Shown here: one piece after another, positions 1 to 28,259 of the stretch
Numbering within the stretch: position 1 is the first letter of the stretch
Layout of the letters: the number at the start of each line of letters is the position of its first letter
Assembly (NCBI GenBank): GCA_040755455.1
Contig: JBFMAY010000015.1
Location: 15,890 to 79,889 of the forward strand
Direction of reading: 5' to 3'
DNA length: 64,000 nt
Origin: Thermodesulfobacteriota bacterium
Lineage (GTDB): Bacteria; Desulfobacterota; Desulfobulbia; Desulfobulbales; SURF-16
Translations under genes and position numbers: made by a program
Notes under the pieces: model-generated
What the model saw: the letters and a program-made list of their open reading frames with translations, nothing else
Told to the model about the DNA's origin: nothing
The model's database searches: none

Positions 1-840
1 GATGAAGGAGTTCCAGGCATTGATGCCGGTCAGGGTTGCCGTGCGCAGTTCCTGGCGGGGAGTGGTGGCGAGATTGGTGCCGGGGGCAACGGGCAGGTAC
101 TCCATGGCGCCGCCGCCGACATGGCATTCGCCGCAGTCGCGCATCTGGCCGGCCACGGACAGATCCACCTGTTTCTTAAAGGCGGCTTCGGTGCCGAAAT
201 CAAGAGGAGCGGTGAAGTTGACCGGGGCCTGGGTGCGGGGTTTGACGGCCGCGGTCGCCTTGATGTAAGTGGCGACGCCGTTGGCGTCAAGTCTGTTGTT
301 GGAGGAATCGACGAGGATGTCGGTGCCGGCGGTGTAGACGCTGTCATTATCCACATCCTCGTAATATTGTCCTTTCAGGGCCGCGTTGAACCCTGTCATG
401 TCATTGGGGAACAGTTTCGCCAACTGGCGAGAGGAAGGGGGTCACCATTTGCCGACGTGGCCGGGTGACTGCACCCAGGGTTTGCCCTGGGTGGCCTCGG
501 AGTTCCAGTTGCCCATGGCCCAGGCGTTCCAGCCGAGAATCTGGTTGGCGCCGAGCTGGGCATGGTAGGAATGCCGCTCGATGGCTTTGTAATCGTGGCA
601 GGCGCCGCAGCTTTTATTGCTGCTGTATGCCGGCAACGGGCCGGCGGGAAGTTCATAGGTGTCATCCGCGTTGCCGGGGGTCCCGTCTGCGCCGGCATCG
701 ACGAACACCGGTCTCACGTATTGATCGTTGGCGTCTTTGATATAGACCGACGGGTGTGACCAGGCCTGGCTGCCGCCCATCACCACGGCCGCGGCTGTTA
801 TGGCGCTGATCACGAGTCCGCTTTTATAACTCTTTTTCAT
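1..840 (-). CDS. Secreted multihaem c-type cytochrome whose 3' end runs off the window. The frame is interrupted by one in-frame TGA at 442-444 (candidate selenocysteine or readthrough, or a nonsense pseudogene).
   Basis: ORF 442..840 has a signal peptide (MKKSYKSGLVISAITAAAVVMGGSQAWS), a CGACH haem motif and an AAGGAG RBS before the ATG at 840. The same frame stays open from 441 to base 1 (147 codons, checked triplet by triplet) and encodes a second haem site, MRDCGECH (121-144). Confidence 0.6.
417..430 (-). other. Small hairpin UCGCC-AGUU-GGCGA starting 11 nt 3' of the in-frame UGA; SECIS-like candidate
   Basis: Plus strand tcgccaactggcga is a 5-bp inverted repeat with a 4-nt loop containing GU. 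The spacing to the UGA was counted by hand. Confidence 0.3.
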
Positions 841-889
841 TTTCCACTCCTTAGCCGACGGTTGTCAGCTTCTTCATTGTTTCTTTTTG

Positions 890-1217: not shown

Positions 1218-1511
1218 GGGTGTCCTGCCCAATTGTTTGCCTGGAGGGAGGCTTGAAATTGCATGCCGGCCAGAAGAAAACAATGGCTGCGGCATGTCCA
1301 TGATCACTGCCGCCGGGAAAAGGGCAAAAACTGCGGGTTGAAAGACGTGGGGATATTTTCTTTGCATTTATTTCAGCTCATTTTGAAAAAACTGGATGAA
1401 ATAAAATGAGCTTGCGTATAGGTTAGACGGAAACTATCTAAGTTGCCAGGTTTGTTTTTTGTGAAACCCGGACCGGCAACTTGTTCATTCATTTTACAGA
1501 GGGGACAATTC

Positions 1512-2516
1512 ATGAAGATTTCTCTTAATAATGTGTGCAGAATTGCATTTGTTTTTCTTTGCCTGTGCATCGCCTCAACGGCAATGGCGGCAGAAGAGAA
1601 AAAGGAAGGGGGTGTAGTCGCCCAGGTCAATGGCCAACCGATTACCAGCAGGGATTTCGATACAGCAATGAAGGCGGCCAAACAGCAGTTTGCCGGCCTC
1701 GGCTGGCAGGAGGGTGACCAGGAGCAGCTCAAGCAAATGCAGACCCTCACCCTTGACCGGCTCATTGATTTTGAGCTGCTTTACCAGGCCAGCCAGAAGG
1801 AGAAAGTCAACGTTGATGACAATGCCATTAAAGAGAAGATGTCCGCCTTTAAAAAACAGTTTCCCTCTGATGCGGAATTTCAGAGTTTCCTGACCACCAA
1901 TGAGTTGACCGAGGAAGTCATGCAGACCCAGCTGCGCCGTAAAATGGCCATTGAGGGTCTGCAGGAGAAGCTGTATGACCAGTTTGTCGGCGGGACCAAG
2001 GTAACGGATGAAGAACTTCGCCAGTTTTATGATGCCAACAAGGACAGCATCAAGCAGCCGGAAAAGGTGAGGGCAAGCCATATCCTCGTTGCGGTGGAAG
2101 CCAATGCCGATGAAGCGGCAAAAAAAGCGGCAATGGAAAAAATCAAAGGCATTCAGAAAAAATTAAAGGATGGCGGGGACTTTGCCAAACTGGCCCAGGA
2201 GAGTTCCGATTGCCCCAGCAAGGCCAACGGCGGCGACCTGGATTTCTTTGTTAGACAGCAGATGGTTAAACCCTTTGCCGATGTGGCCTTCAGTACCCCG
2301 GTCGGCCAGACCAGCGATATCGTAACCACCGAGTTCGGTTATCACCTGATTAAGGTAACGGACAAACAGCCGGAAAAGATGCTGAACTTTGATGAGGTGA
2401 AGGAGAAAATCAGCACATACCTGAGCCAGCAGAAAATCGACAGCCAATTTGAGGTATATATGAAAGGACTGCGTGATCAGGCGGATATCAAACGGATGCT
2501 GCCGGCAAACTCATAA
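1512..2516 (+). CDS. Periplasmic PpiC/parvulin-type peptidyl-prolyl cis-trans isomerase (SurA/PrsA-like)
   Basis: ATG at 1512 with a GAGGGGA RBS. Signal peptide MKISLNNVCRIAFVFLCLCIASTAMA. Parvulin core: ASHILV...GGDLDFF...FGYHLIKV. Confidence 0.85.
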   Translation: MKISLNNVCRIAFVFLCLCIASTAMAAEEKKEGGVVAQVNGQPITSRDFDTAMKAAKQQFAGLGWQEGDQEQLKQMQTLTLDRLIDFELLYQASQKEKVNVDDNAIKEKMSAFKKQFPSDAEFQSFLTTNELTEEVMQTQLRRKMAIEGLQEKLYDQFVGGTKVTDEELRQFYDANKDSIKQPEKVRASHILVAVEANADEAAKKAAMEKIKGIQKKLKDGGDFAKLAQESSDCPSKANGGDLDFFVRQQMVKPFADVAFSTPVGQTSDIVTTEFGYHLIKVTDKQPEKMLNFDEVKEKISTYLSQQKIDSQFEVYMKGLRDQADIKRMLPANS

Positions 2517-2531
2517 GGTCCGGCTTTTTTT
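2501..2531 (+). terminator. Weak intrinsic terminator after the PPIase gene
   Basis: GCCGG (2501-2505) pairs with CCGGC (2520-2524) and is followed by T7 (2525-2531). It overlaps the stop codon at 2514-2516. Confidence 0.45.
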
Positions 2532-2721
2532 CTCAGGAAAGGTCATTTCCAGTCAGGAACCGGCGCGTCAGGCGGATGCCCGCGCGTTACGCCTTTGTCG
2601 CAACCGGTTCCTCCGTTCTTGCTGCACCGCGCACCTGCGGGCCTGGCTGTCTCTCCCAGGCCCGCAACCTCTGCAGCCCGTCGCAGGATTTTCAATAAAA
2701 CAGCAGTAAGGAAGTTGTCAG

Positions 2722-3399
2722 ATGAAAAAAATCAGAGTCATGCTTGTTGATGATCATGATGTTGTTCGCTCCGGCTTAAAATCGTTGTTGGGCATGGACC
2801 CGCAGATTGAAATCGTCGGCGAGGCGGCAAACGGCGTCGAGGCCCTGGCCAGAATACCGGAATTTGCCCCTGAGGTGGTGGTGATGGATATTTCCATGCC
2901 GGCCATGGACGGCCTGGAGGCGACCAGAAGGATCAGCGCCGGATTTCCCGATTGTCTTGTCCTCGCTCTCACCGTGCACGCGGACAAGCAGTATTTTTTC
3001 GAGATGCTCGCCGCCGGGGCCAAGGGATATATCACCAAGCAGGCGGCCGCCGAGGAGCTGGTTTCCGCCATCAAGGCGGTGGCGTCGGGCAATGTTTATC
3101 TGCAGCCGGCCCTGGCCCGCTGGCTGCTGGAGGATTATCAGCGGATCAACAGGAGCGGGATCGGCAATGGCGAGCAGAACCTGACCTCCGCTGACCTGGC
3201 CACCCTCAGTAAGCGGGAACAGGAGATTCTGGAACTGGTGGCTGAAGGACTCACCACCCCGGAAATAGGCCGGAAACTTGATCTCAGCCCGAAGACCGTT
3301 TCCCGGCACCGGGAGCGCATCATGAACAAACTGAACATGCACTCGGCCACCGAACTGGTCAAGTTTGCCATCCGGACCGGGCTGATAGATGTTCGCTGA
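2722..3399 (+). CDS. NarL/LuxR-family response regulator (REC + HTH_LuxR)
   Basis: Receiver motifs MLVDDHDVV and VVVMDISMP. C-terminal LuxR HTH: LSKREQEILELVAEGLTTPEIGRKLDLSPKTVSRHRERIMNKL. Confidence 0.9.
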   Translation: MKKIRVMLVDDHDVVRSGLKSLLGMDPQIEIVGEAANGVEALARIPEFAPEVVVMDISMPAMDGLEATRRISAGFPDCLVLALTVHADKQYFFEMLAAGAKGYITKQAAAEELVSAIKAVASGNVYLQPALARWLLEDYQRINRSGIGNGEQNLTSADLATLSKREQEILELVAEGLTTPEIGRKLDLSPKTVSRHRERIMNKLNMHSATELVKFAIRTGLIDVR

Positions 3400-3487
3400 G
3401 CGGAAAAACAAGCGGCGGCAATGCCGCGGGGCAGGTCACGGCAATGGGCGTTTATCCATTCCTGCCGGATCATAAACAGGAGGACGT

Positions 3488-5023
3488 ATGCAGAGTAAGG
3501 AAACAGCGAGGTGTGGTCTCTTTCCTTCCACCTTTTTTCGCGGCCTGGTATTTATTTCGCTTATTGCCGTGCTGATCCTGCCGCTCTATACGATTTTCAT
3601 TCTTTCCCCTTCTTTTGTCGATTTTGTCATCAAATCCCAGGAAGAGCTGGCCGCGGAAGTGGCCGTGCACATGGAATCAAAGCTCATTCCGGACAAGAGC
3701 CAGCAGCTGACCAGGGATATTCTCACCCCTGATGTCCTGAAAAGAATCACCGGCACCGCAACCGATTTTAATCTCATGAAGGTGCGCATCATGTTTCCGG
3801 ACGGAGAGATATTCTATTCAACGGAAGAGCATGAGCTTGGCCGGATCATCTCCTTTGCTGAGTTCAAGCGGACGGTGAGCTCGGGCGCGCCATACGCTCA
3901 GCTGCGCAAAAAAGGGGAGAAATCGCTGGAAGGCGCGGTGATGCCGGGCGATATTGTGGAAACCTACGTGCCCATTCTCCGGGACGGCAAGACCATCGGC
4001 GTGTTTGAAATCTATTACGACATCAGCGCCCGGAAGGAGGCCCTGAGCAGGCTGCTGCGCATGCTCTACTTCACCCTGTTTCCCATCGCCTTTATTCTGT
4101 TTGCCGCAGTCATCTTCAGTTGCCGCCGGGCAAACAGCAGTATTGCCCGCCGGGTGGAGGCGGAAGAGAAACTGATGGAGCAGCGGGAAGAGCTCAAGGC
4201 GAAAAACGAGGAGTTGACGGAGCTCATCATTATCTGCCGGGAACGCCAGCGCAGGCTGGAAGAGGAGCAGAAGGCCCGCCAGCAGGCCCAGGAGCAGGTG
4301 CAGCAGGAAATGCTCAAGCGGGAAAAAATGCGCATTGACCTGCTGCGCCACATGGTGCGGTCCCAGGAGGAGGAGCGGGCGCGCATTGCCCGGGAGCTCC
4401 ATGATGAGACGGCCCAGACCCTGACCGCCGCCTCGCTGAATTTCGCCACCCTGCAGAATCAGCTTGCCGCCAATCCGGAGATGGCGGGGGTGGTGGGCCG
4501 TCTGCAGGGGCTGTGCAAGCAGATGCACCAGGATCTCTATCGGCTGGTCCATGATCTGCGCCCGGCCCAGCTTGATGATCTGGGCCTGGTGCCAGCCCTG
4601 CGCTTTCTTGCCGACGAGGGGCAGAAGAGCAGCGGGCTTGCGGTCACTCTGACCATCAGCGGCAGCCAGCACAAACTTGAACCGTTCGTGGAAACCATTA
4701 TCTACCGCTTCGTGCAGGAGGGGCTTACCAATGTGACCCGCCATGCCGGAACCGGCCAGGCCTCTGTTGCCCTGATTTATGAGGAGGATCAGATCGTCGC
4801 CCGGGTGGCGGACCAGGGCAAGGGGTTTGATCCCGAGCAGCACCGGCAGGCCGGCTCCGGCTGGGGCCTGGTGGGCATCGCCGAGCGGATCCAGTCGTTG
4901 AAAGGCTCTTTCCGCATCGAATCGGCCCCGGGCAAAGGGACCCTGCTGGAAATTGCCGTTCCCCTGACCCTCGGCTCCTGTCCTTTTGACGGCATGACCG
5001 GGGAGCGGCCGGGACAAGCCTGA
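3488..5023 (+). CDS. Membrane sensor histidine kinase, NarX/DegS type (HisKA_3 + HATPase_c)
   Basis: AGGAGG RBS. Two hydrophobic segments flank a periplasmic domain, followed by a coiled coil. H-box ARELHDETAQTL. ATPase motifs DQGKGF and GWGLVGIAERI. Adjacent to the NarL-type regulator. Confidence 0.9.
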   Translation: MQSKETARCGLFPSTFFRGLVFISLIAVLILPLYTIFILSPSFVDFVIKSQEELAAEVAVHMESKLIPDKSQQLTRDILTPDVLKRITGTATDFNLMKVRIMFPDGEIFYSTEEHELGRIISFAEFKRTVSSGAPYAQLRKKGEKSLEGAVMPGDIVETYVPILRDGKTIGVFEIYYDISARKEALSRLLRMLYFTLFPIAFILFAAVIFSCRRANSSIARRVEAEEKLMEQREELKAKNEELTELIIICRERQRRLEEEQKARQQAQEQVQQEMLKREKMRIDLLRHMVRSQEEERARIARELHDETAQTLTAASLNFATLQNQLAANPEMAGVVGRLQGLCKQMHQDLYRLVHDLRPAQLDDLGLVPALRFLADEGQKSSGLAVTLTISGSQHKLEPFVETIIYRFVQEGLTNVTRHAGTGQASVALIYEEDQIVARVADQGKGFDPEQHRQAGSGWGLVGIAERIQSLKGSFRIESAPGKGTLLEIAVPLTLGSCPFDGMTGERPGQA

Positions 5024-5098
5024 CAAGAGACGTTTGCCCCGGGCTTTGATCTGCTTGGTTGACTTGCCCTGCATGATCGCCGCGCCTGGAACGGGCAC

Positions 5099-5117
5099 AA
5101 GGCCCCGGCCTTCTTTT
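5099..5117 (+). terminator. Possible weak terminator after the kinase gene
   Basis: AAGGCC-CC-GGCCTT followed by CTTTT. Short stem and short T-run. Confidence 0.3.
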
Positions 5118-5244
5118 CCGCAAATATCACTGTTGTCTCATTGCCTCTGTCCGGCTATACTTTGACGAGCCGGTTCCGGTTGCCGGCCGGGCAGTGAATG
5201 ACCATCCCGATCATCCAAATTCTGTTAAACGTGTCGCGCGGTGC

Positions 5245-8200
5245 ATGAAAACTCTTCTCGCCAAAAAACATCTTTTTGCTCTGCTGGCCGGGCTGCTGGC
5301 CTTGGTCCTGTTGTTTAGCACGCTTCCTTACCTGGGCAGGACAGTGCTGGCCCAGGTAAGTGGCCGGCTGGGCATGGAGATTGAAATCGGGGAGATCGGC
5401 GGCAATATTTTCAACCATCTCACCGTGGCCAGCATAAAGGGGGTGCGCACGGACAAGGCGCAGCCGGTGTCCGGGTTCACCGCGGCCGATGTGCGCCTTG
5501 ATTATTCCCTGGCGAGTCTCTTCGGCGGGGTTGATGCCTTTCTGGCCCGGCTGCGGATCGAAGCGAGCCGGGCCAAGATGGTCCTTGACCTGGCTGGCGG
5601 GCAGGATAGCCGGCCCGCGGCGGAAAACGGCCGGGGAGTTGTGCCGCCTGCGGTGTTGCCGGCCCTTGCCGTAGGCGGTATTGAGCTGGCCGTCCACGCA
5701 ACGGATTATGACCTCGCCATTGCCGATACCTCTCTGCGGGTTGAGCCGGCCGCCGCGGGCCGGTCCGGGCAGCCGGTGCAAGTGGACATGCCGGTGCTGC
5801 GGCTCCATGTGGACGGCCGGGAAAAACTGGCGACCTCCTGCCGGCTCAGGCTGCTTTATGGCGCCGGGCAGATCCGCATTGAAGAGATGACCATGGCGGA
5901 CAAAATCGTCTCCCTGCAAGGGCTGCTGGTCCGGGACCAGGCCGGCCGGCCGGCGAGCTTTACCCTGCAGGCCGAGGTCAGCGGCGGGCGGCTGCAGGGG
6001 GCCGGCACTTTTGCGGCGGCCGGGCAGACGAACCTGGGCCTGCAATTGACAAACATCGATATCGCCGAGCTTGCCCGCCTGCTGCATTGGGAGGATTTCG
6101 CCGTGGCAGGCAGGCTTTCCGGCAGTATCAGCTGGCAGTTTGCTGCCGGGCAAAGCGGCTCCCAGATCGCTGACATCAGCCTTGGGCTGGCCCAGGGCCG
6201 GCTGTTCGGAGAAAAAACAGAGGCCTCTTTCCAGGGCGGCATTAACCACGACAAGGTTATAGTCAAGGAATTTGCGGCAACCCATGGACAAAACAGGGTG
6301 GCCATGACTGGGGCAACCGCGCCGCTCACCGTCTTCACCGATTGGGACCCGGCCCGGCTGGCCGGCCTGGAGAGCAAGTCCATCAAGCTCCAGCTGCGCA
6401 ACATCCCGGCCTTTATGGCCGTCTTTGGCATGGCCGCGCCCCTGCAGGCTTTTCCCGATCACCTGCTTGAGGCCCGGGGCAGCATGGCGGACCGGGTGCT
6501 CACCATCGACCAGGCGGATCTCAAAACAGGCAGCAATTCCGCGGGGCTGACCGCGGCGCGCCTGCGCTTCACCCCTGCCGGGCAATCCATGCTTGATTCC
6601 CCTGTGGCCGGCGCCCTGCAGCTGGACATCAGCGACCTGCGGGAACTGTCGTCGCTCTTTGCCTTGCCGGTGATGGCGGGGCAGCTGCGGGGGGATGCCG
6701 TTATCAGCGGCACGCTGCGCAGTCCTGCCGGGGCCATCACCCTTGCGGGGGAAAGGCTGGCCTATGGGAACAGCGCTCTGGGGGAGGTGAAAGTCGAGGC
6801 CCGGGCGGACAGCAGGCAGCTGCACATTGCCTCCCTGAGGCTGGGCAATGGTGCCGACACCCTGGAGGCCGCCGGCAGTTATTCTTTCCAGACTGGCCGC
6901 TCTGAGGATATCACCGGCAGGGTCCTGGTGGAGGATGTCGGCCGTTACGCCGGCTTGTGGGCCATGGAGGGCAAAGCCAGCGGCCGCTTGGAGGCCGCCC
7001 TCACGCCCACGGAGGCAGGAGAACTGCGGCTGGATATGACGATGGGCGGGGCGGCCTTTGCCGGTCTGCATGATGCGGCGCTGCGCGGGGTGATGACCAC
7101 CGACTGGCGCAGCTACCGCATCACGGATGCCGAACTCAAAACCGGGAAGGGTTCGCTGCGTTTTTCCGCGCACATTACCCCGCAGCCGGCGGACAAGCTG
7201 GTGCGGGCCGAACTTGGCGCTTTGACGGTTGCAGGCCAAGGCGACGAATTTACTCTGGAGCGGCCGGCCCAACTCGTTTTGTCTTACGGAGAGAAGGGGA
7301 CGAGCCTTGAGCTGGGCGAGATGCTGCTCAGGAGCGCGGCAGGGGATATCAGCCTGCGGGGTTCTCTGGCCATGCAGGCGGAGAGCTGGCTGCAGGTGCA
7401 GGCGCAAAGACTGACCGGCCGGGGCTGGCTTGATGGCTTGACCGGCGGCGGGTATCAGTTCAGCGGCGCGGATGTGCTGTTCTCCCTGCAGGGGCCCCTT
7501 GCCGTGCCGCGGGCCTCCCTGACCGCCCGTATTGCCGAAATCAACTGCCCGCAGTTGACCGTGCCCCTGTCAGGGGATATTGCCGTTGATTATGACGGCG
7601 CTGCAGGTCTCACCATCCGCCGGTTTCTGCTAACGACTGACCAGGGACAGCAGATTTCCCTGGCCGGCCTGCTCCCTTATGACCCCCTGGCGGACAATCC
7701 GTTTCTGCCGGCCGCCCTGGACCTCAGGGGAAAAGCCGTGCTGCCCGGCCTGCGGGGAATTGCCGACAACACGGCGGTCAACGCCGTGCAGGAGGGACAG
7801 TTTTCCGGCGACTTGCAACTGACGGGTTCCTGGGAGCAGCCGACCGGCGCGCTGCATTTCACGGGCAGCAATCTTTACCTGCACCGTTTCCTCAACAATG
7901 CCCCCAGGGAGCCTTTGACCGTGGCCGGCCATATCGCTATTCTGCCGGGCGCCCTTCAGCTGCGGCAGCTGACCGTGCAGGGCTCTCCCTTATCCTTCAG
8001 CATGGACGGCACCTGGTCTGATATCCCGACCCTGGCCGGGCTCATCCGTCAGCCGCCGGAAGGACTGCCCGGCACGGTGGCCTTTGACGGCCGGCTGGAA
8101 ATGACCGAGGTCGGCTGGCTGGCGGCCTACGCTGGAGGATTGCGCCGGCTGACCGGACATCTGGCGGCGACCATGAGCGCCCGCGGGCCGGCCGCCCGGC

Positions 8201-9330
8201 CGCAGTTTTCCGGCGCCACCACCCTCACCGGCGGCGGCGTTCGTCTGGAAAACGCCAACCTGCCCGCCATCGAGCAGCTCGAGCTGCAGGCCGGTCTTGA
8301 CCAGAATGTCGTCAACCTGCACAGGCTCTCCGGAGTGTTCGGCGGCGCCCCTTTTCAGGCCAGCGGCAGCGTAGCGCTTACCGGCCCGGATGCCCCGGTG
8401 GTTGACTGCCGGCTGCAGGGGAAGAATCTTCTTTTTTATCGTGATGCGTCGATGAAGATCCGCGCCGATGCGGATCTGACCGTCAAAGGACCATGGCGCC
8501 GGCTCGAACTGGGGGGCAAGGTCGTGATCGTTGACGGGCGGTATATGAAAAACGTCGATTTCCTGACCATGTTCCGGGGCTCGGCCAGACCGAAAAGCGA
8601 TCTCGGCATGCAGCTCTTTTCCCTCACCGAAACTCCCTGGCGTGACATGGCTTTTGATGTGCTGATCACCTCTGACACGCCATTGACGATTTATAACAAT
8701 ATGGCCAGGGGCGGGGTGCGGCCGAACCTGCACCTGACCGGCACCGGCGAAATTCCCGTGCTGGCCGGCCGGATTTTTGTCGACCAGACCAGAATCAGTG
8801 TGCCGGCCGGCAAGATTGTCATCGAATCCGGCGTGGTCAGCTTTCCGGAAAATGATCCGGACCGGCCCACCTTTGACCTCAGCGGTAAATCCAGGCTGGC
8901 CGGCTATGATATCACCCTGATTTTTCAGGGGACTTCTGACGAACCGGTCATCACCCTGACCTCCGATCCGCCCCTGGCCGAGGATGAACTGCTGCTGCTC
9001 GTCCTCACCGGCAGTCCGCCCCAGTTATCCCAGGAAAAGGAAAAGGAAAAGCGGGCCATGGCCAACATGAATACCGCGGTTTATCTCGGCCGGGGCTTGC
9101 TGAGCAGATGGTTCGTGGGAGAATCCATTGAAAGCGAGGAATCGATGCTGGACCGGTTTGAGTTTGACTTCGGCCGGCAGCTCAGCAAAAGCGGCGAGGA
9201 GACGGTTGAGGCGCAATTCCGCCTGATTGAAGGGTTGTTTCTGCCGGGTGACCGTCTTTTCCTTACCAGTGAAAAGGATATTTATGATAACTTCAATGTC
9301 GGCGTTAAGGTCGTCTTCCGGTTTAAATAA
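5245..9330 (+). CDS. tamB: Translocation and assembly module protein TamB (AsmA-like, DUF490 C-terminus)
   Basis: About 1360 aa with an N-terminal membrane anchor (MKTLLAKKHLFALLAGLLALVLLF). Long beta-rich G/L/A/D sequence and a TamB-like C-terminal segment (..DITLIFQGTSDEPVITLTSDPP..NVGVKVVFRFK). An Omp85 gene follows 11 nt later. Confidence 0.75.
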   Translation: MKTLLAKKHLFALLAGLLALVLLFSTLPYLGRTVLAQVSGRLGMEIEIGEIGGNIFNHLTVASIKGVRTDKAQPVSGFTAADVRLDYSLASLFGGVDAFLARLRIEASRAKMVLDLAGGQDSRPAAENGRGVVPPAVLPALAVGGIELAVHATDYDLAIADTSLRVEPAAAGRSGQPVQVDMPVLRLHVDGREKLATSCRLRLLYGAGQIRIEEMTMADKIVSLQGLLVRDQAGRPASFTLQAEVSGGRLQGAGTFAAAGQTNLGLQLTNIDIAELARLLHWEDFAVAGRLSGSISWQFAAGQSGSQIADISLGLAQGRLFGEKTEASFQGGINHDKVIVKEFAATHGQNRVAMTGATAPLTVFTDWDPARLAGLESKSIKLQLRNIPAFMAVFGMAAPLQAFPDHLLEARGSMADRVLTIDQADLKTGSNSAGLTAARLRFTPAGQSMLDSPVAGALQLDISDLRELSSLFALPVMAGQLRGDAVISGTLRSPAGAITLAGERLAYGNSALGEVKVEARADSRQLHIASLRLGNGADTLEAAGSYSFQTGRSEDITGRVLVEDVGRYAGLWAMEGKASGRLEAALTPTEAGELRLDMTMGGAAFAGLHDAALRGVMTTDWRSYRITDAELKTGKGSLRFSAHITPQPADKLVRAELGALTVAGQGDEFTLERPAQLVLSYGEKGTSLELGEMLLRSAAGDISLRGSLAMQAESWLQVQAQRLTGRGWLDGLTGGGYQFSGADVLFSLQGPLAVPRASLTARIAEINCPQLTVPLSGDIAVDYDGAAGLTIRRFLLTTDQGQQISLAGLLPYDPLADNPFLPAALDLRGKAVLPGLRGIADNTAVNAVQEGQFSGDLQLTGSWEQPTGALHFTGSNLYLHRFLNNAPREPLTVAGHIAILPGALQLRQLTVQGSPLSFSMDGTWSDIPTLAGLIRQPPEGLPGTVAFDGRLEMTEVGWLAAYAGGLRRLTGHLAATMSARGPAARPQFSGATTLTGGGVRLENANLPAIEQLELQAGLDQNVVNLHRLSGVFGGAPFQASGSVALTGPDAPVVDCRLQGKNLLFYRDASMKIRADADLTVKGPWRRLELGGKVVIVDGRYMKNVDFLTMFRGSARPKSDLGMQLFSLTETPWRDMAFDVLITSDTPLTIYNNMARGGVRPNLHLTGTGEIPVLAGRIFVDQTRISVPAGKIVIESGVVSFPENDPDRPTFDLSGKSRLAGYDITLIFQGTSDEPVITLTSDPPLAEDELLLLVLTGSPPQLSQEKEKEKRAMANMNTAVYLGRGLLSRWFVGESIESEESMLDRFEFDFGRQLSKSGEETVEAQFRLIEGLFLPGDRLFLTSEKDIYDNFNVGVKVVFRFK

Positions 9331-9341
9331 GGTATGATCCC

Positions 9342-11492
9342 ATGAAGCACGTATCGCCGCGCGACACGATAGTGACCCTCTTTGCTCTGCTGCTGTTGCT
9401 GTTTAATCCCCTGTTGGCCGGGGCCGGAGACAACGCTGCAGAAGCGGCTGCCGGGGCAGCGGGGGGAAATGGTGATTTTCCCGTGGTTTTCCAGGGCAAT
9501 GACCACCTGACCGAGGATGATCTGCGGGCAGCGGCGGCTGAAGAGCTGGCCGGTTTTGCCGGGTCGGACTTTCCCGAGGCAAAGGCTGATGATGCGGCGT
9601 TCATGATCGAAACCGCCTATAAGCAGGCTGGCTATGCCTTTGTCAAGGTGGCGTATCACCTGGCGCCGGCAAAGGATGGCATGCAGCTCGGGTTCACGAT
9701 TACCGAAGGCCCCCAGGTGGTGGTGAGCGGTATTGTCATCAGCGGCAACAGCACCTTTACCACCAAGGAGCTGCTCGCTTTTTTCGAGGAAAAAGACAGC
9801 GGCCTGCCGGGGCTGGGCCGCCTTGTCTTTGTCGAAGGGGCAATCCGGGATGCCGTCGCCGCCATCCGGGATCACTATACCGGTGAAGGCTTTCTGCAGG
9901 TGAAAATCGATGCGCCGGTATTTGCCTTCAGCGCGGACCGCAGCGGGGTTGAGGTGCGGCTCGCCGTGCATGAGGGACAGCGCATTACGGTCGGTGCCAT
10001 CCATTTCCAGGGGGACATCCTGGCGGATGCCGGCGCGGAGCTGGATAAGCTTGCCGCCGACTTGACCGGCAAGCCATTTCTCGGCCGGCGCAAACTGATG
10101 CTGCGCAGCGGGGTGCAGGAAATCTACGGCAACCTGGGATACCCGGATGTGCAGGTGGAAATTGCCGAGAACCGGGCTGATTCCTCCTCGCAGGTGGGTC
10201 TCACCTGCGCCATCAGGAGCGGGCCGCAGGTGGTCATTACCGGCATAGAGGTTGCCGGCAACACCCGGACCGAAAGCGAATTCATCCTGAGCCGGTTGGC
10301 CCTCCGGCAGGGTGATACCTTCAACAGCCGTAAAAAACGGGAAAGCTTCCAGCGCCTGTATCAGACCGGTTTGTTCAGCAGGGTCAACCTTGATCTGGCG
10401 GCAGGGGCCAATGCCAATGAGCGGGTGCTGAACGTGCAAGTTGAAGAAACCATGGCCAGGGAGATCTTTTTCCAGGGCGGCTGGGGCTCCTATGAGCTGC
10501 TGCGGGGCAGCGCCGGGTTTCTGGACAAGAATATCCTCGGCAGCGGCCGGGTGTTCCGCGCCGAGGTTGGCGGCTCCTTCAAGAGCGCCAATGTCGAGGC
10601 GGCGGTGCGGGACCCGTGGATCTTCGGCACCGGCATCAGCGCCGATCTCCCCGTGTTTTACCGTTACCTGGAAGAACCGTCCTTTACCAGCGAGGAACTC
10701 GGCATGTCCGTGCTTTTTACCAAGGACCTGCGCAAGGACCTGTCCGTCTCCCTGGCCTACCTGTACAGCAGCAACAAGATCACGGATATTGTCGAAACCG
10801 ATGATGTCGAGCCGGAGAGCGATTATACCACCGCCAGTCTCAAGCTGCAGACCACGCTGGATACCAGAAACGACATCTTTTTCCCAAGCCGGGGCAGGAA
10901 AATTCTTGCCGCGGCGGAGATTGCCGAACCCGCCCTGGGCAGCGGCCTGTCCTTTTACCGTTTCAATTTCGGGGTTAGGGAGTTTTACCCGCTCGGCAAA
11001 AAAAATACCCTGGCGCTGCGCTATGCCACCGGGGTCATTTTCCCGGGCCGGGACCAGATCATCATCCCCATCGGCGAGCGGTTCTTTAACGGCGGCGAAA
11101 ACACGGTGCGGAGTTTCAGCGAGTCCGAGCTCGGCCCCAAGAATGAGGATGGCGATCCCCTGGGCGGCATGGCCTTTAATGTGTTCACCGTGGAGCTGCG
11201 CCGCCTGCTGACCGACCGCCTGGCCGCCTCCCTGTTCATGGATTACGGCAATGTTTCGCCGAATCTGTCACCTGAAGAGGACAGCGACGGGCCGTTCACC
11301 GGCCGCCAGGAGGTGATCGACAGCACCTTGCGTGATTATTTCAGTGATTTCCGGCCGGGGCTGGGCGCGGGTGTGCAGTATCTCCTGCCGGTGGGCCCGG
11401 CCCGGCTCGATTTTGCCTGGAATCCCGATCAGGACACGGACAGAGACGAGGACAGCTTCACCGTGCACTTCAGCATCGGCATGGCCTTTTAG
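9342..11492 (+). CDS. Omp85/BamA-family outer-membrane protein with POTRA repeats (TamA-like partner of TamB)
   Basis: Signal peptide, POTRA-like repeats (ISGN..F, IEVAGNTRT), and a C-terminal bacterial surface antigen barrel ending FSIGMAF. Genetically coupled to tamB. Confidence 0.8.
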   Translation: MKHVSPRDTIVTLFALLLLLFNPLLAGAGDNAAEAAAGAAGGNGDFPVVFQGNDHLTEDDLRAAAAEELAGFAGSDFPEAKADDAAFMIETAYKQAGYAFVKVAYHLAPAKDGMQLGFTITEGPQVVVSGIVISGNSTFTTKELLAFFEEKDSGLPGLGRLVFVEGAIRDAVAAIRDHYTGEGFLQVKIDAPVFAFSADRSGVEVRLAVHEGQRITVGAIHFQGDILADAGAELDKLAADLTGKPFLGRRKLMLRSGVQEIYGNLGYPDVQVEIAENRADSSSQVGLTCAIRSGPQVVITGIEVAGNTRTESEFILSRLALRQGDTFNSRKKRESFQRLYQTGLFSRVNLDLAAGANANERVLNVQVEETMAREIFFQGGWGSYELLRGSAGFLDKNILGSGRVFRAEVGGSFKSANVEAAVRDPWIFGTGISADLPVFYRYLEEPSFTSEELGMSVLFTKDLRKDLSVSLAYLYSSNKITDIVETDDVEPESDYTTASLKLQTTLDTRNDIFFPSRGRKILAAAEIAEPALGSGLSFYRFNFGVREFYPLGKKNTLALRYATGVIFPGRDQIIIPIGERFFNGGENTVRSFSESELGPKNEDGDPLGGMAFNVFTVELRRLLTDRLAASLFMDYGNVSPNLSPEEDSDGPFTGRQEVIDSTLRDYFSDFRPGLGAGVQYLLPVGPARLDFAWNPDQDTDRDEDSFTVHFSIGMAF

Positions 11493-11566
11493 GGGCCGTT
11501 ACCCCATAACCCGTGATTTCATCTTCCGCCAACCGACCCATGGAGTTTTTTTTCAGGAGAAGCGTT

Positions 11567-13123
11567 ATGAAACATAAGATTGCCCTCTTCGTGCTGGTCA
11601 TTGCCATGCTGTTTCCCCCATTGGCCATGGGCGGCTCGGATCTTCCGCAAAACGAAAAAACCACTGGCCGGTTCTTTACATCCATCCACGACAGTCCTGC
11701 CCTGCTCAGAGGCTTCCTGGGCAGGATGCCCAAGGGCGCTGACCTGCACACCCACCTCTCGGGCGCGGTGTACGCTGAGGACTTCCTGCAATGGGCCGTG
11801 GAAGACGGCCGCTGCCTTGACACGGCGTCCTTTACTATCGTCAGGGCAAGCGGGCAAACCGGCAGCAGCCAGCCCCTGTGTCCGCCGGGGACGGTTGCCG
11901 CCACGGAGCTGGAGAAGGATAACGCCCTGTACGCGGCGGCGGTGAACGCCCTGTCCACCCGCAACCTGGAAACCACCACCCACATGTGGGGGCACGACCA
12001 GTTTTTCAGCACCTTCGGCAGGTTCGGCGCGGCAAAAGAGGGCAGGGAGGCTGACATGCTTGCCTCGGTGCTGCGGCGCGCCGCAGGCCAGGGCATTCTC
12101 TACGTTGAGGTGATGGATTCCCTCTATCCGCAAAACCTCAAAACCATTGCGGAAAAAGTCGGCTGGCCCGGCGACGCCGCAGCCGCCCTGGCGGCCCTGC
12201 GCCAGGAGGGGCTTTTCGACGGCATTGGGCAATCCGGCGCGGCCCGCAGTGAGACCCTGGCCAGGATGCGCGCATTGCTCGGCTCCGGCCCCGGCGGCAA
12301 CACGGCGGTGCGCTTCATCCAGCAGGTAACCCGCACTGCGGCTCCGGCCCAGGTGTTCGCCCAGCTTGCCTACAGCTTTGAACTGGTGCGGCAGGACCCC
12401 AATGTGGTTGCCGTCAATCTGGTCGCCCCGGAAGACCACCCGGTCGCCCTGCGGGACTATTCCCTGCAGATGGCGATGATCGACGCCCTCAGCGCCATGC
12501 CGGAGTATGCAGACACCCCCATCACCCTGCATGCGGGGGAACTGAGTCTGGGGCTGGTGCCGCCGCGCCATCTGCGCTTCCACATCCGCGAGGCCGTGGA
12601 AAAAGGCCACGCCCGCCGCATCGGCCATGGGGTGGATATCATGTACGAGGAAAATCCCTTTGCTCTGCTCCGCGCCATGCGGGATAAAAAGATAGCCGTG
12701 GAAATCTGTCTCTCCAGCAATGACCGGATTCTTCATGTTGCCGGCCCGGAGCATCCGTTCCCGGTATACCGCCGGTACGGGGTGCCTGTTGTGCTCAACA
12801 CGGATGACGAGGGCGTTGCCCGCATTGATCTGACCAACGAGTACGTCCGCGCCACCCGCACCTACAATCTGGGATATGAAGATGTCAAGGCCCTGTCGCG
12901 CAACAGCCTTGAATACAGCTTTCTGCCCGGCAGGAGCCTGTGGGCCAACCCGGCCACCTTTGCCATGGACAGCGCCTGCAAGGACTCCCGCGCAGGGCAG
13001 CGCGAAACGCCGCAATGCGGCAAACTGTTGGATGAAAGCGAAAAGGCCCGGCTGCAATGGGCGCTGGAAATGGCCTTCATTGCCTTTGAGCGGGAGGTTG
13101 GGCAGACAATGGCCAACCGTTGA
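11567..13123 (+). CDS. Secreted adenosine/adenine deaminase-family metallohydrolase
   Basis: AGGAGA RBS. Signal peptide MKHKIALFVLVIAMLFPPLAMGG. Deaminase motifs DLHTHLSGAVY, ITLHAGE, IGHGVD and VLNTDDEGV. Confidence 0.75.
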   Translation: MKHKIALFVLVIAMLFPPLAMGGSDLPQNEKTTGRFFTSIHDSPALLRGFLGRMPKGADLHTHLSGAVYAEDFLQWAVEDGRCLDTASFTIVRASGQTGSSQPLCPPGTVAATELEKDNALYAAAVNALSTRNLETTTHMWGHDQFFSTFGRFGAAKEGREADMLASVLRRAAGQGILYVEVMDSLYPQNLKTIAEKVGWPGDAAAALAALRQEGLFDGIGQSGAARSETLARMRALLGSGPGGNTAVRFIQQVTRTAAPAQVFAQLAYSFELVRQDPNVVAVNLVAPEDHPVALRDYSLQMAMIDALSAMPEYADTPITLHAGELSLGLVPPRHLRFHIREAVEKGHARRIGHGVDIMYEENPFALLRAMRDKKIAVEICLSSNDRILHVAGPEHPFPVYRRYGVPVVLNTDDEGVARIDLTNEYVRATRTYNLGYEDVKALSRNSLEYSFLPGRSLWANPATFAMDSACKDSRAGQRETPQCGKLLDESEKARLQWALEMAFIAFEREVGQTMANR

Positions 13124-13313
13124 TTCTGTAGTGAGGACACCAGGCGTTATCAGTTCGAAAACGGCCATGGCTTTGCAAAATGAGATGGGCTCTCTATAAA
13201 GCTTGGCGTCAGGTTTTCCTGTTGCTAAGATAGGGAGCCAACAAGCACTTTCCTGGTGGGCGAACCGCTTATGGCGCGGTCGCCTTCCCAAACTTTTTTT
13301 TAGGAGATAACCG

Positions 13314-13808
13314 ATGAAAAGATTTTACCTGTGTCTGGGCGTTTTACTGCTCCTCTTGAACGGCTGCGGCAATTCCGTGGAGGAAAAGGCCATTGAAAAA
13401 AAGATTGAGAAGGAAACCGGCGCCAAGACGGATGTGGATCTTTCCGACAAAGGCATGAAGATAACCGGGGCATCGGAGGGGGAAAAATACTCCGTCACCA
13501 CCGGTGATGCCACGGAGATCCCGAAAGACTTTCCTGCCGATGTGCCCCTGTACCAGCCCTCCAAGGCCGTGGGCGCGGTAACGGTCACCGGCGGGTATTC
13601 CGTTTCGTTGACCACCGGCGACGATGCGGCCAAGGTCGCGGCAAGCTACAAGGAGCAGATGACCTCCCAGGGCTGGTCCGAACAGGCATCCATGAACGTG
13701 GGGGGACAGACCGTGCTCGTCTATGAAAAAGAGGGGCGGGCCACCAATATTGCCGTCATGCCGGCTGACGGCCAGACAAGCATAACCGTGACCGTGGCAA
13801 CGGAGTAG
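13314..13808 (+). CDS. Lipoprotein of unknown function
   Basis: AGGAGA RBS and lipobox LLLLNGC in MKRFYLCLGVLLLLLNGCG. Confidence 0.7.
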   Translation: MKRFYLCLGVLLLLLNGCGNSVEEKAIEKKIEKETGAKTDVDLSDKGMKITGASEGEKYSVTTGDATEIPKDFPADVPLYQPSKAVGAVTVTGGYSVSLTTGDDAAKVAASYKEQMTSQGWSEQASMNVGGQTVLVYEKEGRATNIAVMPADGQTSITVTVATE

Positions 13809-13898
13809 TTCCTTTCCGGCAGTTGCGCGAGCCACTGCCGTCTGATAAGCGCCGGCCTGGCATCAGCCGTGGCAGGCCGGCGCAAGGATGGATTTCGC

Positions 13899-14093
13899 AT
13901 GGCGCAACTCGGCGAAAAAGAAAAAACCCGCAGGATTATAGGAGCGGTTCTGCTCAGCATCGGCGCTCTCTGCACGATCTGGGGAGACAAGACCGATCAT
14001 TTGGCTGTCCTCAGGTTTGGCAAAACCACCGCCGTTGCCGGCATTGTTCTTTATTTCCTGGGCAGAATAGGGAAGCTGCTGCGCAAGGGTTAG
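13899..14093 (+). CDS. Small two-TM membrane protein (hypothetical)
   Basis: Two hydrophobic helices (IIGAVLLSIGALCTIW and AVAGIVLYFLGRIG). The start is uncertain (GTG at 13869 or ATG at 13899). Confidence 0.35.
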   Translation: MAQLGEKEKTRRIIGAVLLSIGALCTIWGDKTDHLAVLRFGKTTAVAGIVLYFLGRIGKLLRKG

Positions 14094-14204
14094 CTGATGC
14101 CTGGGCGGACCTGGGCGTTGCGGACTGCATGCGGTGTGGACCCTGCCGCCAGGGGACGCGGTGGCGGCTTTTATGATTTCTGATTGCATGAATTGTATCT
14201 CTGA

Positions 14205-14233
14205 TTGACAATTTATGCAAGACCCGCTACCAT
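14205..14233 (+). promoter_or_regulatory. Sigma-70-like promoter candidate immediately upstream of the ATPase gene
   Basis: TTGACA (14205-14210), 17-nt spacer, TACCAT (14228-14233). The ATG at 14241 is only 8 nt away, so the mRNA would be nearly leaderless. Confidence 0.3.
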
Positions 14234-14240
14234 TGATTCC

Positions 14241-17866: not shown

Positions 17867-17974
17867 AATTTTTCTCCTCGAAATTTGATAAAACTTTGAC
17901 CACCTGATCGACGCATGCTTATTCTTCAACAGGGCCCCTCCTCTTCCCCTATGATCCATCATGCGGTGACACAT

Positions 17975-20296: not shown

Positions 20297-20444
20297 TGCG
20301 CGAGACGGGGTAGGAGCCAGCCGAACCATAATCAGACTTGCCCTTCGTTTGCGCTTTTTCCATTTGAACCGTACTATCGCCATTGCATGGCGATCCCCCA
20401 CCCCTGTCGAAATCCAGCTGACTGTAACCTGCTTGCCTTTGCAC

Positions 20445-25654: not shown

Positions 25655-25794
25655 GCTCTTGGTGGGGGGAGATAATTGGGGTAAGATGCCGGGGCTGAGA
25701 GGGGAGGGCATGATGATATGGCGGTTGTGCATAATATGCGGGCCTCTTGCCGCCCCTTGTAAATCAAGAAGAAATTTCAACTGAATGCGGAAAA

Positions 25795-28048: not shown

Positions 28049-28259
28049 GTTATTGGGTAAATATGTCTGGGCTGAGAGGGGAGTATGATATTATGGTAGT
28101 TATGCACAATATGCCGCCTGAGCCCGGGATGGGGTGATGAAAATAAGCCGCGGTGGTTTTTTTCAGGTGGTTCTCGACAATTTGCGCATCATCTCCAGGT
28201 CGGTCAGAGCTTTCACGTCTTCTGTAAAGCAAGAAGGAATTTCAACTGAATGCGGGAAA

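Follow-up and report, generated by a model that had tools for sequence, protein, structure and literature searches.

A conserved in-frame UGA in a multihaem cytochrome gene of a Thermodesulfobacteriota bacterium almost certainly encodes selenocysteine

A gene for an exported multihaem cytochrome at the edge of the window (the whole stretch of 64,000 nucleotides analysed here) is interrupted by what looks like a stop codon but, as judged from the comparison of this locus with its relatives, almost certainly specifies selenocysteine (Sec). The comparison demonstrates one open reading frame, a conserved UGA, the alternation of predicted Sec with Cys at the UGA column and a covarying hairpin that fits the bacterial SECIS (bSECIS) consensus. 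The best joint explanation, which we consider very probable, is a single exported nine-haem cytochrome gene whose UGA codon 133 is read as Sec by means of the stem-loop, the Sec residue having a putative role at the side of a haem.

A cytochrome reading frame interrupted by TGA

The gene lies on the minus strand and is accompanied by a regulatory pair on the plus strand. The features referred to below are the following.

1..840, minus strand: partial gene for a predicted exported nine-haem c-type cytochrome, the 5' 280 of 1121 codons, leaving the window at base 1
847..852, minus strand: putative ribosome-binding site AAGGAG (GGAG at 850..847), read from the sequence, 6 nt upstream of the ATG at 840
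442..840, minus strand: open reading frame 840..442 of 132 aa, with a signal-peptide-like N-terminus (MKKSYKSGLVISAITAAAVVMGGSQA, followed by W) and CGACH at 609..595
763..840, minus strand: predicted signal peptide MKKSYKSGLVISAITAAAVVMGGSQA, with a basic n-region, a hydrophobic core and an AxA-like site, predicted cleavage after SQA
595..609, minus strand: haem-binding motif 1, CGACH, codons 78-82, its C, C and H invariant in 39 full-length relatives
445..477, minus strand: conserved peptide WVQSPGHVGKW directly before the predicted Sec codon, with His128 5 residues before Sec
442..444, minus strand: UGA codon 133, predicted to be read as selenocysteine, TGA being conserved across relatives
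417..430, minus strand: candidate SECIS apical stem-loop UCGCC-AGUU-GGCGA, inside the coding sequence S-R-Q-L-A-K, 11 nt after the UGA
121..135, minus strand: haem-binding motif 2, CGECH, codons 236-240, within the conserved block GQMRDCxECHVGGG
2722..5023, plus strand: divergent two-component system, with a Response_reg and GerE regulator (2722-3399) and a HisKA_3 kinase (3488-5023)

The TGA at 444..442 closes the 132-aa reading frame, and the same frame is then free of stops for 147 codons down to base 1, so that the gene extends beyond the window. Downstream of the TGA, an ATG first occurs at position 399 on the minus strand. What the first-pass annotation had read at this site was reproduced throughout, i.e. 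the coordinates of an open reading frame with a signal peptide and CGACH that ends at TGA, the 147 codons without a further in-frame stop, a second haem motif MRDCGECH (found at 144..121, minus strand), a downstream part with its first Met at 399 and without a signal peptide of its own, and a UCGCC-AGUU-GGCGA hairpin 11 nt after the UGA (430..417, minus strand). The signal peptide was predicted from features read directly in the sequence; one is present in the N-terminal pieces of all homologues and none was found on the downstream piece, which carries seven to eight haem motifs (8 of the 9 in the window's gene).

The identical 132-aa product is encoded on 13 contigs, three of which (L012-L014, from three independent metagenome assemblies) provided the complete gene. 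It has 1121 codons with a final TAA, a single TGA, at codon 133, and nine CxxCH motifs, eight of them invariant in 39 relatives, which identifies the product as a multihaem c-type cytochrome. The spacing of haem motif 1 varies among relatives (CX2CH, CX4CH or CX5CH). Members of the family have 8-9 haems and 900-1600 aa, with the predicted Sec at residue 120-170, after the first haem motif, and with PKD/Ig-like domains at the C-terminus; Pfam Cytochrome_C7 scored above cut-off in one relative.

A nonsense pseudogene or an assembly or sequencing error typically shows up as a single in-frame stop close to a window's edge, and the first-pass annotation had considered such an origin plausible. The comparative data refute it, leaving it a negligible probability. 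Sequencing error is excluded because the three assemblies, which represent one species-level population and differ by 3 to 13 nt over 840 nt, all keep the TGA. Moreover, more than 40 diverged loci have this codon in a frame that is otherwise intact, and the substitutions relative to two 90%-identical loci (L015 and L016) are biased to third codon positions both before and after the TGA.

The regulator and kinase genes adjoin the homologues in L001-L006, L009-L011 and L012-L014 and may regulate the cytochrome. A screen of the window for other in-frame TGAs with a long open frame on both sides returned only antisense artefacts and overlapping start/stop sites.

The UGA column and the downstream stem-loop

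At the column of codon 133, TGA is present in 35 of 37 species-level loci, TGT (Cys) in one and GAT (Asp) in one, while TAA or TAG occurs in none of the 37 although neighbouring third positions vary freely. The first-pass annotation had named an unconserved sense codon at this column in orthologues as a refuting outcome, and these counts run against it. More than 40 distinct loci share the TGA, its frame and the placement of the hairpin, and the species-representative TGA loci span Desulfobulbaceae, Desulfurivibrio, Desulfocapsa, Desulfuromusa, Geotalea, Geomonas and Geobacter. Cys is found at the column in the TGT locus (L032), in the full-length proteins P0012, P0147, P0152 and P0164 and also in P0172 and P0190, and Asp in L011/P0011 and L038/P0140; the Cys and Asp homologues are continuous open reading frames. 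Past the TGA, the frame remains open for about 750 to 1070 codons in each locus with enough downstream DNA, and up to the contig ends in the short contigs L007, L008, L030 and L043. None of the orthologues genuinely ends at the TGA, another outcome that the first-pass annotation had named as refuting, and the PPSxRQ that follows it is conserved.

The peptide WVQSPG(H/M)xGKW-U-PPSxRQ is kept on both sides of the UGA. Residues K120, W122, Q124, G130 and W132 are invariant in one alignment (A2), and W122-G130 and W132 in another (A4). The residue at position -5 to the UGA is Met or His in 71 of 71 stop-terminated pieces and mostly Met in the Cys forms. The first-pass annotation had also raised the concern that HVGKW-U-PPSS is not a CxxU or UxxC redox motif; the answer is that the family has a different, conserved Sec motif. 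A conserved UGA column, Cys homologues and a coding signature on both sides, by which a bacterial selenoprotein gene is recognized, are all found here.

The same data bear on the possibility of two genes, i.e. a 132-aa monohaem cytochrome that ends at the UGA and a large cytochrome that starts at the ATG at 399 or at a TTG, the Leu codon of RQLAK. All gene callers and all public annotations split the members in this way. Because Sec tends to be inserted with low efficiency, a truncated product should arise to some extent in any case, which would be compatible with two genes as well. However, inspection of the sequence before the downstream TTG or ATG used by gene callers revealed nothing comparable to the ribosome-binding site of the upstream frame, and the downstream piece has no signal peptide, yet it bears haem motifs that require export. 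From the UGA to the putative start there are six codons, always in frame and conserved as protein; all 35 species loci that bear a stop have TGA, and the uninterrupted Cys and Asp homologues point in the same direction. Two separate genes, which the first-pass annotation had ranked as the least likely reading, are considered highly improbable.

The second line of evidence for Sec insertion within a single gene is the stem-loop. The window's hairpin taken alone is no better than chance: its 71-nt region gave z = +1.57 against shuffled sequences, 196 of 200 shuffles folding at least as well, and a search of the window with Rfam at gathering thresholds gave no match. The comparison with relatives settles the question. 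The 37 unique TGA-bearing sequences almost all fold a hairpin at this register; in the stem alignment 93.2% of the cells are paired, with compensatory double changes at 3 of 6 pairs (15 cells). The covariation score was reached by none of 500 shuffles, and controls slid along the alignment fell to 28-64% paired. Examples of compensation are GCU..AGA versus GCG..CAC and CGA..UCG versus CGC..GCG, with the involvement of synonymous third positions. The latter point is essential, since RQLAKK is also conserved in a UGA-free sister family and the conservation of the hairpin is thus partly at the protein level, so that the RNA argument rests on synonymous-site covariation. The idea that the Leu codon of the loop (UUG) is held by an RNA constraint only was dropped for the same reason.

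The Zhang and Gladyshev model was used as the bSECIS consensus in the form given in PMC13188914, Fig. 2A, which specifies a loop of 3-9 nt, an upper stem of 4-16 bp, 16-37 nt from UGA to loop, and a minimum free energy not above -7.5 kcal/mol, together with a G within the first two loop positions, after which G or U is usual. The window's element lies within all four constraints, its 4-nt AGUU loop having G at position 2 and then U. It is the weakest of the family, with a stem of 5 bp, an energy of -7.9 kcal/mol and a spacing at the lower limit of the consensus. The relatives range from -8.7 to -21.7 kcal/mol, and the distance from UGA to loop is 16 nt (an 11-nt spacer plus a 5-nt stem arm) in all loci. 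The short stem had been listed as counter-evidence in the first-pass annotation; this doubt is answered by the 6-7 bp present in most relatives and by the covariation. Loop positions 1 and 2 (A and G) are invariant in the 37 sequences and position 3 is U in more than 90% of them and G in the others, whereas the loop GU is gone in the three loci with a sense codon at the column (AGCU, CAGUCA or no in-register hairpin).

The element resembles the E. coli fdhF-type SECIS in being a stem-loop within the coding sequence right after the UGA, with a small apical loop bearing G at position 2 and then U or G. In the minimal fdhF element the stem also starts 11 nt after the UGA, as in the window. It differs from that type in its AGUU tetraloop without a bulged U and in its stem of just 5 bp, with spacing and energy at the limits of the model; SelB binding is predicted here.

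A downstream hairpin can also stimulate plain read-through, and a further possibility is that a near-cognate tRNA (Trp, Cys or Arg) reads the UGA, aided by the UGA-C context and by the hairpin, giving a full-length protein devoid of selenium. The codon indeed always has UGG before it and C or A after it. On the other hand, the alternation of UGA and Cys codons at one column is a classic mark of Sec, the hairpin matches the SelB-type bSECIS consensus (loop G, then U or G) and the gene is confined to lineages shown or reported to use Sec. It would also be hard to explain why a costly leaky stop has been kept for so long where a sense codon would serve. Read-through without Sec is thus regarded as improbable, and the first-pass proposal of one continuous exported cytochrome with UGA read as Sec through the hairpin is supported by the TGA column, the covariation and the flanking conservation.

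Comparison with known multihaem cytochromes

A search of NCBIfam with the protein assigned no family, leaving the ExtKL, GSU2204 family and octahaem tetrathionate reductase (OTR) models unmatched. The cytochrome family is not among the haem-protein families in the 2026 catalogue of 119 and is absent from the current selenoprotein catalogue.

Among the closest known systems is MccSep/ExtKL of Geobacter sulfurreducens (GSU2937-2936, NF040886, PDB 9wt8 and 9wt9), a pentahaem selenoprotein polysulfide reductase. Both are periplasmic multihaem c-type cytochromes with one Sec encoded by UGA and a downstream stem-loop, both were long annotated as two open reading frames, and they share Geobacter, Desulfuromonas and Desulfurivibrio as organisms. 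In both, Pro follows Sec and Arg is at +5 (U-PTPNR in MccSep, U-PPSSR in the window, U-PPSAR in most of its relatives). However, MccSep is a protein of 5 haems and 450 aa whose Sec, residue 325, belongs to an Ig-like domain at the C-terminus, while in the window's family it lies in an N-terminal module. This position, the lack of an NCBIfam match and the lack of similarity to 9wt8/9wt9 led us to reject membership in NF040886; the PDB database contains the MccSep chains, and neither the full-length query (E up to 1) nor a profile of the N-terminal domain (E up to 10) matched them. Membership in the GSU2204 family (NF041027), which is included in the 2026 catalogue, was rejected as well. That family shares with the window's family a Geobacter member, a CXXCH motif and a predicted Sec, and differs in its description as an MtrB/PioB-type outer-membrane beta-barrel; the window's protein does not match the NF041027 model.

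A remote fold match to OTR emerged from structure prediction. AlphaFold modelling of the full-length Asp form (P0011) returned good haem core and C-terminal beta-sandwich domains but not a good N-terminal domain; with residues 1-740 and a deeper alignment the haem-1 region was rescued, the loop equivalent to the Sec position having pLDDT <50. The only significant Foldseek neighbour of the predicted haem core was 1SP3, Shewanella oneidensis OTR (E = 3.7e-5, probability 1.00), in a superposition that is geometrically weak (target TM 0.35, rmsd 14.7 A). The stretch between the first two haem motifs of OTR contains a Lys that ligates a haem and an active-site Cys. The invariant K120 and U133 of the window's family are presumably in the corresponding stretch. 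The likeness is in the eight-haem core, whereas the window's family is two to three times larger and has C-terminal PKD/Ig-like domains. Membership in TIGR04315 was rejected, no match being found at E up to 0.1 (the curated cut-off is 375 bits); the weakly related octahaem proteins P0172, P0190 and P0192 share the N-terminal motif and have sub-threshold similarity to TIGR04315/TIGR04314. Some members of the OTR family are annotated as selenoproteins in GenBank (PMC13188914).

A sequence search of the PDB detected no homologue of the window's protein. A profile of the sister family left 1SP3 unmatched and gave only weak matches to the haem-packing regions of NrfB, NrfA and octahaem nitrite reductase. 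The sister family consists of proteins of ~850 aa from Zixibacteria, Gemmatimonadota and Methylomirabilota, annotated as 'formate dehydrogenase subunit gamma', in which an octahaem cytochrome is fused to a PF01292 cytochrome b domain. Its N-terminal module is the same, comprising haem motif 1, YHFQ and PWxxSxGxxGKW-x-PxxxRQLAKK; the blocks of haem 2 and haem 3 come next. In contrast with the window's family, it has a membrane-anchoring cytochrome b domain in place of the PKD domains and no UGA among the members listed, the column being Tyr (84), Cys (20) or Ser (5), with Phe or Leu at -5 where it is Tyr. The occurrence of Asp, Tyr and Ser at this column in relatives indicates that the residue is not always a redox-active chalcogen.

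Proposed function and selenium use

In the mechanism that we propose, bases 840..1 would be the first quarter of a single gene for a c-type cytochrome of ~120 kDa with nine haem motifs. The stem-loop at 430..417 (loop AGUU), 11 nt downstream of the UGA, would recruit SelB carrying Sec-tRNA(Sec); SelB would insert Sec at codon 133 and the ribosome would go on for 988 codons. Export of the entire chain by the N-terminal signal peptide would allow haem to be attached to each of the nine CxxCH motifs in the periplasm.

Sec would thus be found in the N-terminal module PWxQSxG(H/M)xGKW-U-PPSxRQ. The His or Met at -5 could be an axial haem ligand and, as Sec follows it by five residues, we infer that Sec is positioned beside the haem. 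The N-terminal domain has four conserved His residues versus one haem motif, which is suggestive of a role in donating distal ligands to downstream haems; the count is not conclusive, because three more semi-conserved His also occur downstream. In MccSep, Sec sits beside a haem with an unusual distal ligand and offers a model for the function proposed here, in which Sec next to haem may serve catalysis or redox tuning in a terminal oxidoreductase. By analogy with MccSep and the OTR class, the substrate would probably be a sulfur or selenium species.

The use of Sec by the source organism, including its dependence on SelB, is deduced from relatives. None of selA, selB, selD and tRNA-Sec was found within the 64-kb window (ARAGORN; Pfam over about 40 window ORFs). 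The insertion of Sec in MccSep by G. sulfurreducens is documented by mass spectrometry and selenium content, and this organism has two paralogues of the window's gene, each with TGA and hairpin. Desulfurivibrio alkaliphilus has a Sec-type MccSep, and the two named relatives nearest to the window, the Desulfobulbaceae MAG JALNXE01 and the Desulfurivibrio sp. SURF_16 MAG QZKJ01, include one of its genus; several Geobacter, Desulfuromonas and MLMS-1 genomes are also reported to use Sec. Sec use in these carriers speaks against a lack of Sec machinery, the remaining refuting outcome that the first-pass annotation had named. A literature search found no experimental selenium data (75Se, mass spectrometry) on the cytochrome family. 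The predicted tryptic peptide across the UGA in G. sulfurreducens (AAR36618.1 plus AAR36619.1) is NWVQSPGHVGSW-U-PPSAR, and in the second paralogue (AAR36623.2 plus the gene after it) the site reads AMYGKW-U-SPSLR. Both G. sulfurreducens copies, which judging by gene order are presumably the split genes GSU3227/3228 and GSU3232/3233, sit in a cytochrome-rich cluster beside rpmA/rplU. The cluster is presumably GSU3218-3233, which is reportedly induced by iron oxide minerals.

A more far-reaching reading, which we put forward tentatively and consider rather doubtful as a whole, is that these proteins are a widespread and uncatalogued group of selenium-dependent multihaem enzymes in which Sec and the Met or His at -5 are on or over the haem iron. 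Sec might then be a selenolate axial ligand, and Sec-haem catalysis would have been invented independently a second time, after MccSep. The G. sulfurreducens copies would act as terminal reductases that depend on selenium and reduce sulfur, selenium or mineral-bound substrates.

Public records split all members of the family, G. sulfurreducens included, into a small 'cytochrome c, 1 heme-binding site' (AAR36618.1) and a large product (AAR36619.1 in G. sulfurreducens), labelled 'PKD domain-containing protein' in RefSeq. As a result, proteomics, Tn-seq, transcriptomics and cytochrome inventories count one protein as two, and the predicted selenium requirement is hidden. To our knowledge, no haem-selenium enzyme had been characterized before 2026. 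In MccSep, Sec beside haem drives sulfur respiration, and a second, unrelated and much larger family of multihaem selenoproteins in the same sulfur- and metal-respiring lineages suggests that Sec-haem chemistry is a recurring solution. One of the carriers of the family is amenable to genetics. The availability of selenium may constrain extracellular or sulfur respiration more broadly than has been assumed.

One reading frame across the TGA

Re-reading of the minus strand returned the features below, and all the coordinates given by the first-pass annotation (ORF, TGA, open frame, haem motifs and hairpin) proved right.

852..847 (-): ribosome-binding site AAGGAG, ahead of the ATG at 840
840 (-): ATG start of the ORF
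609..595 (-): haem motif CGACH, from the translation
444..442 (-): in-frame TGA, end of the called ORF
430..417 (-): hairpin UCGCC-AGUU-GGCGA, 11 nt after the TGA
144..121 (-): MRDCGECH, in the read-through frame

The N-terminus encoded from 840 is signal-peptide-like, and 147 further codons follow the TGA in the same frame without a stop, to base 1. The exact 132-aa N-terminal product is on record in 13 metagenome contigs, three of which (L012-L014, from different samples and differing by 3 to 13 nt across 840 nt) reach past the window and carry the full gene as one 1121-codon frame with nine CxxCH motifs, ended by TAA and interrupted only by the TGA at codon 133. Since all three show this same frame, a sequencing error at the TGA is ruled out. 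Comparison with two homologous loci of 90% protein identity (L015 and L016) gave substitutions by codon position of 11/5/17 and 11/4/27 before the TGA and of 8/6/19 and 10/4/19 after it, with a third-position bias on both sides, indicating that, in the read-through frame, the downstream stretch is evolving as a coding region.

The exported cytochrome gene adjoins outer-membrane biogenesis machinery, the upstream region 1443-11492 (+) encoding a SurA-like chaperone, a two-component pair, TamB (1378 aa) and an Omp85/BamA-family protein (716 aa). Directly downstream on the opposite strand, just past base 1 of the window, L012 encodes a TauE/SafE-family (sulfite exporter type) membrane protein (13588-14379); a second TauE gene lies within the window at 55490-56212 (+). 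A 718-aa protein at 15818-17974 (-) combines two putative copper-binding MopE-type motifs (PF11617) with multihaem domains (PF11783, PF14537, PF14522), and bacterial SH3 domains (PF06347, PF08239) occur in three small proteins at 25747-26238 (+), 28134-28703 (+) and 58070-58753 (-), one of them joined to an OmpH-like domain. The products of 11519-13291 (-), 19001-20401 (-) and 26547-27554 (-) (590, 466 and 335 aa) matched no Pfam family at E up to 1e-5, and no tRNA or Rfam family matched anywhere in the 64-kb window.

The TGA codon and its hairpin among relatives

The first protein search gave two downstream pieces and four N-terminal pieces (32-51% identity), the latter all ending ...WVQSPGHVG(K/N)W; in the DNA of these relatives the TGA is followed in frame by PPSARQLA... 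and at least 750 open codons. A profile search added about 110 downstream pieces of 700-1400 aa, called from a Leu codon six codons past the TGA, most of the longer ones starting MARLF, LARLF or MAHLF. Two separate genes, split at the TGA, would be the alternative reading. However, the downstream piece lacks a signal peptide of its own, as the first-pass annotation had pointed out, and a ribosome-binding site as well, yet it holds eight of the nine haem motifs; moreover, the six-codon stretch from the TGA to the putative downstream start is conserved at the protein level, and Cys and Asp homologues have continuous ORFs. We therefore favour a single gene read through the UGA.

One genome per species was scanned, and 37 loci came up, in Desulfobulbaceae, Desulfurivibrio, Desulfocapsa, Desulfuromusa, Malonomonas, Geotalea, Geomonas and Geobacter, the closest being a Desulfobulbaceae MAG and Desulfurivibrio sp. 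SURF_16 (each 90% identity). The orthologues' codon at the alignment column of the TGA, which the first pass had proposed to check, is TGA in 35 of the 37, TGT (Cys) in one (Desulfocapsa, L032) and GAT (Asp) in one (Malonomonas rubra, L038), with neither TAA nor TAG in any of them. Searching 1.84 billion representative proteins exhaustively with a profile of the N-terminal module yielded 81 relatives, most of them ending right at the motif. Cys occupies the column in four large full-length proteins of 1245-1596 aa (P0012, P0147, P0152, P0164), and Asp in one full-length protein (P0140). This combination of a UGA kept across species, homologues with Cys at its column and conservation on either side is the signature by which comparative analysis normally recognises a selenoprotein.

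One subfamily (P0155-P0195) has 250-480 extra residues with more CxxCH ahead of the motif (4-6 in the whole piece); its called proteins, of 353-571 aa, all end ...KPWxQSTAMVGKW, so that it presumably also stops at UGA. The N-terminal module is shared by a sister family of about 850 aa (P0214-P0331) from Zixibacteria, Gemmatimonadota and Methylomirabilota, in which an octahaem cytochrome is fused to a PF01292 cytochrome b domain and the Sec column holds Tyr (84), Cys (20) or Ser (5). Its common name, 'formate dehydrogenase subunit gamma', looks like one carried over from the C-terminal domain only.

Taken alone, the 71-nt region of the window folds worse than most of its own shuffles (z = +1.57), and its hairpin is not significant. 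When the 45 nt starting from the UGA are folded to minimum energy, nearly all of 37 unique TGA-bearing sequences form this apical hairpin in an unchanged register, usually with 6-7 bp and often with an extra lower stem. In the ungapped alignment of the TGA and hairpin region, 93.2% of cells hold a base pair, compensatory double changes occur at three of the six pairs (15 cells), the covariation score was reached by 0 of 500 shuffles, and pairing fell to 28-64% in a control with the 3' arm slid. The covariation touches synonymous sites: the third base of an Ala/Ser codon (GCU, GCG, UCU) covaries with the first base of an Arg/His/Lys codon (AGA, CAC/CGN, AAA), and the third base of an Arg codon with an Ala/Ser first base (CGC-GCG, CGA-UCG, CGU-GCG). 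As the RQLAKK peptide is conserved also in the UGA-free sister family, conservation of this region is partly at the protein level and the RNA case rests on covariation.

The apical loop reads A-G-(U/G)-N with invariant A and G, and its GU is gone in all three sense-codon loci. The bSECIS consensus (PMC13188914) comprises a loop of 3-9 nt with G within the first two positions followed by G or U, a stem of 4-16 bp, 16-37 nt from UGA to loop and an MFE no higher than -7.5 kcal/mol; the window's element falls just inside all four limits (4 nt, 5 bp, 16 nt, -7.9 kcal/mol). In L038 (NZ_FQZT01000002.1, around 4220), where the change from TGA to GAT involves all three codon positions, a GCGCC/GGCGC hairpin is kept with the loop AGCU and looks like what remains of a SECIS once Sec had been lost.

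The carriers of the gene are Sec users. Geobacter sulfurreducens PCA puts Sec into its pentahaem polysulfide reductase MccSep (shown by ESI-MS and by a content of 0.96 Se per subunit; PMC13510729), a Sec-type MccSep is reported in Desulfurivibrio alkaliphilus, and Sec machinery has been reported in several Geobacter, Desulfuromonas and MLMS-1 genomes (PMC1914089). Within the 64-kb window, a Pfam search over about 40 ORFs found no selA, selB or selD, and no further candidate selenoprotein gene was present. The observation made at first pass is confirmed, its reading as one Sec-containing exported cytochrome being supported by the comparative data: the UGA is very likely decoded as Sec, and the feature itself is of a known kind, a standard Sec-decoding unit of bacteria.

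Haem motifs and a possible role for Sec

Eight invariant CxxCH motifs are common to 39 full-length read-through sequences, whose 130-residue N-terminal module also has H29, H90, H93, K120 and H128 (the last being His or Met) in common. The spacing of haem motif 1 varies from CGACH in the window (CX2CH, 595-609 (-)) to CAAGTCH (CX4CH) in locus L007 and CFGTAGCH or CFGTVGCH (CX5CH) in Geobacter (L009) and L008; unusual spacing is often the sign of a special haem.

Counted over all fetched proteins, the residue five positions ahead of the stop is Met in 43 and His in 28 of the 71 pieces that end at the motif; in Cys forms the equivalent residue is mostly Met, and in the sister family's Tyr forms it is Phe or Leu. 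These raw counts are biased by the search lists and ignore phylogeny. That a potential axial haem ligand goes together with the Sec/Cys residue suggests a position of Sec beside a haem.

AlphaFold modelled the haem core and C-terminal beta-sandwich domains of an Asp-form homologue well (pLDDT above 80-90), leaving the loop with the Sec-equivalent site unmodelled. The sole significant PDB structural neighbour of the predicted core was octahaem tetrathionate reductase (OTR, 1SP3; E = 3.7e-5), a likeness with a target TM of only 0.35, and octahaem proteins sharing the motif gave sub-threshold matches to OTR and MmcA models. In MccSep, a Sec adjoining a His/Cys haem cleaves polysulfide. Taking this feature of MccSep as the model, together with OTR, we hypothesize, tentatively, that a haem-proximal catalytic Sec might act here on a sulfur or selenium substrate.

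Catalogues and the Geobacter sulfurreducens paralogues

The May 2026 prokaryotic selenoproteome review (PMC13188914) tabulates 119 families, of which only three proved haem-related when its text was searched for cytochrome, haem, CXXCH and PKD: ExtKL (NF040886), the GSU2204 family (NF041027) and OTR-type octahaem cytochromes (TIGR04315). At E up to 0.1 the present protein matched neither these three models nor anything else in NCBIfam, and neither its full-length sequence nor the N-domain profile matched the MccSep chains present in the PDB copy. Full-text searches found no paper tying these genes to selenocysteine, although supplementary tables or other journals may hold a mention; the family is very probably uncatalogued as a selenoprotein.

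G. sulfurreducens has two paralogues, either side of a HisKA_3 kinase and a GerE response regulator and adjoining rpmA and rplU:

7569-10976 (L009/L010; CP010430, CP074693): first paralogue, GHVGSW-U-PPSARQLARLY, 1135 codons
13876-17463 (same loci): second paralogue, AMYGKW-U-SPSLRQVANLM, 1195 codons

Both have the TGA and hairpin and each is one ORF, annotated as split into a small monohaem cytochrome and a large 'PKD domain-containing protein', the latter being the RefSeq name of the 991-aa Geobacter piece; AAR36618.1 and AAR36623.2 are named 'Cytochrome c, 1 heme-binding site' in public records. A gene cluster upstream encodes Paired_CXXCH cytochromes, NHL-repeat proteins and a 677-aa product that matched no Pfam family.

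We take the paralogues to correspond to locus tags within GSU3218-3233, including GSU3228, GSU3232 and GSU3233. Hematite and magnetite induce the GSU3218-3233 cytochromes (PMC4070692), and an ihfA-1 mutant shows a joint rise of GSU3228, GSU3232 and GSU3233 with GSU2937 (PMC7962754). Given that assumed matching, the expression data hint at a respiratory role for what appears to be a selenoprotein family new to the catalogues and occurring in a model organism.
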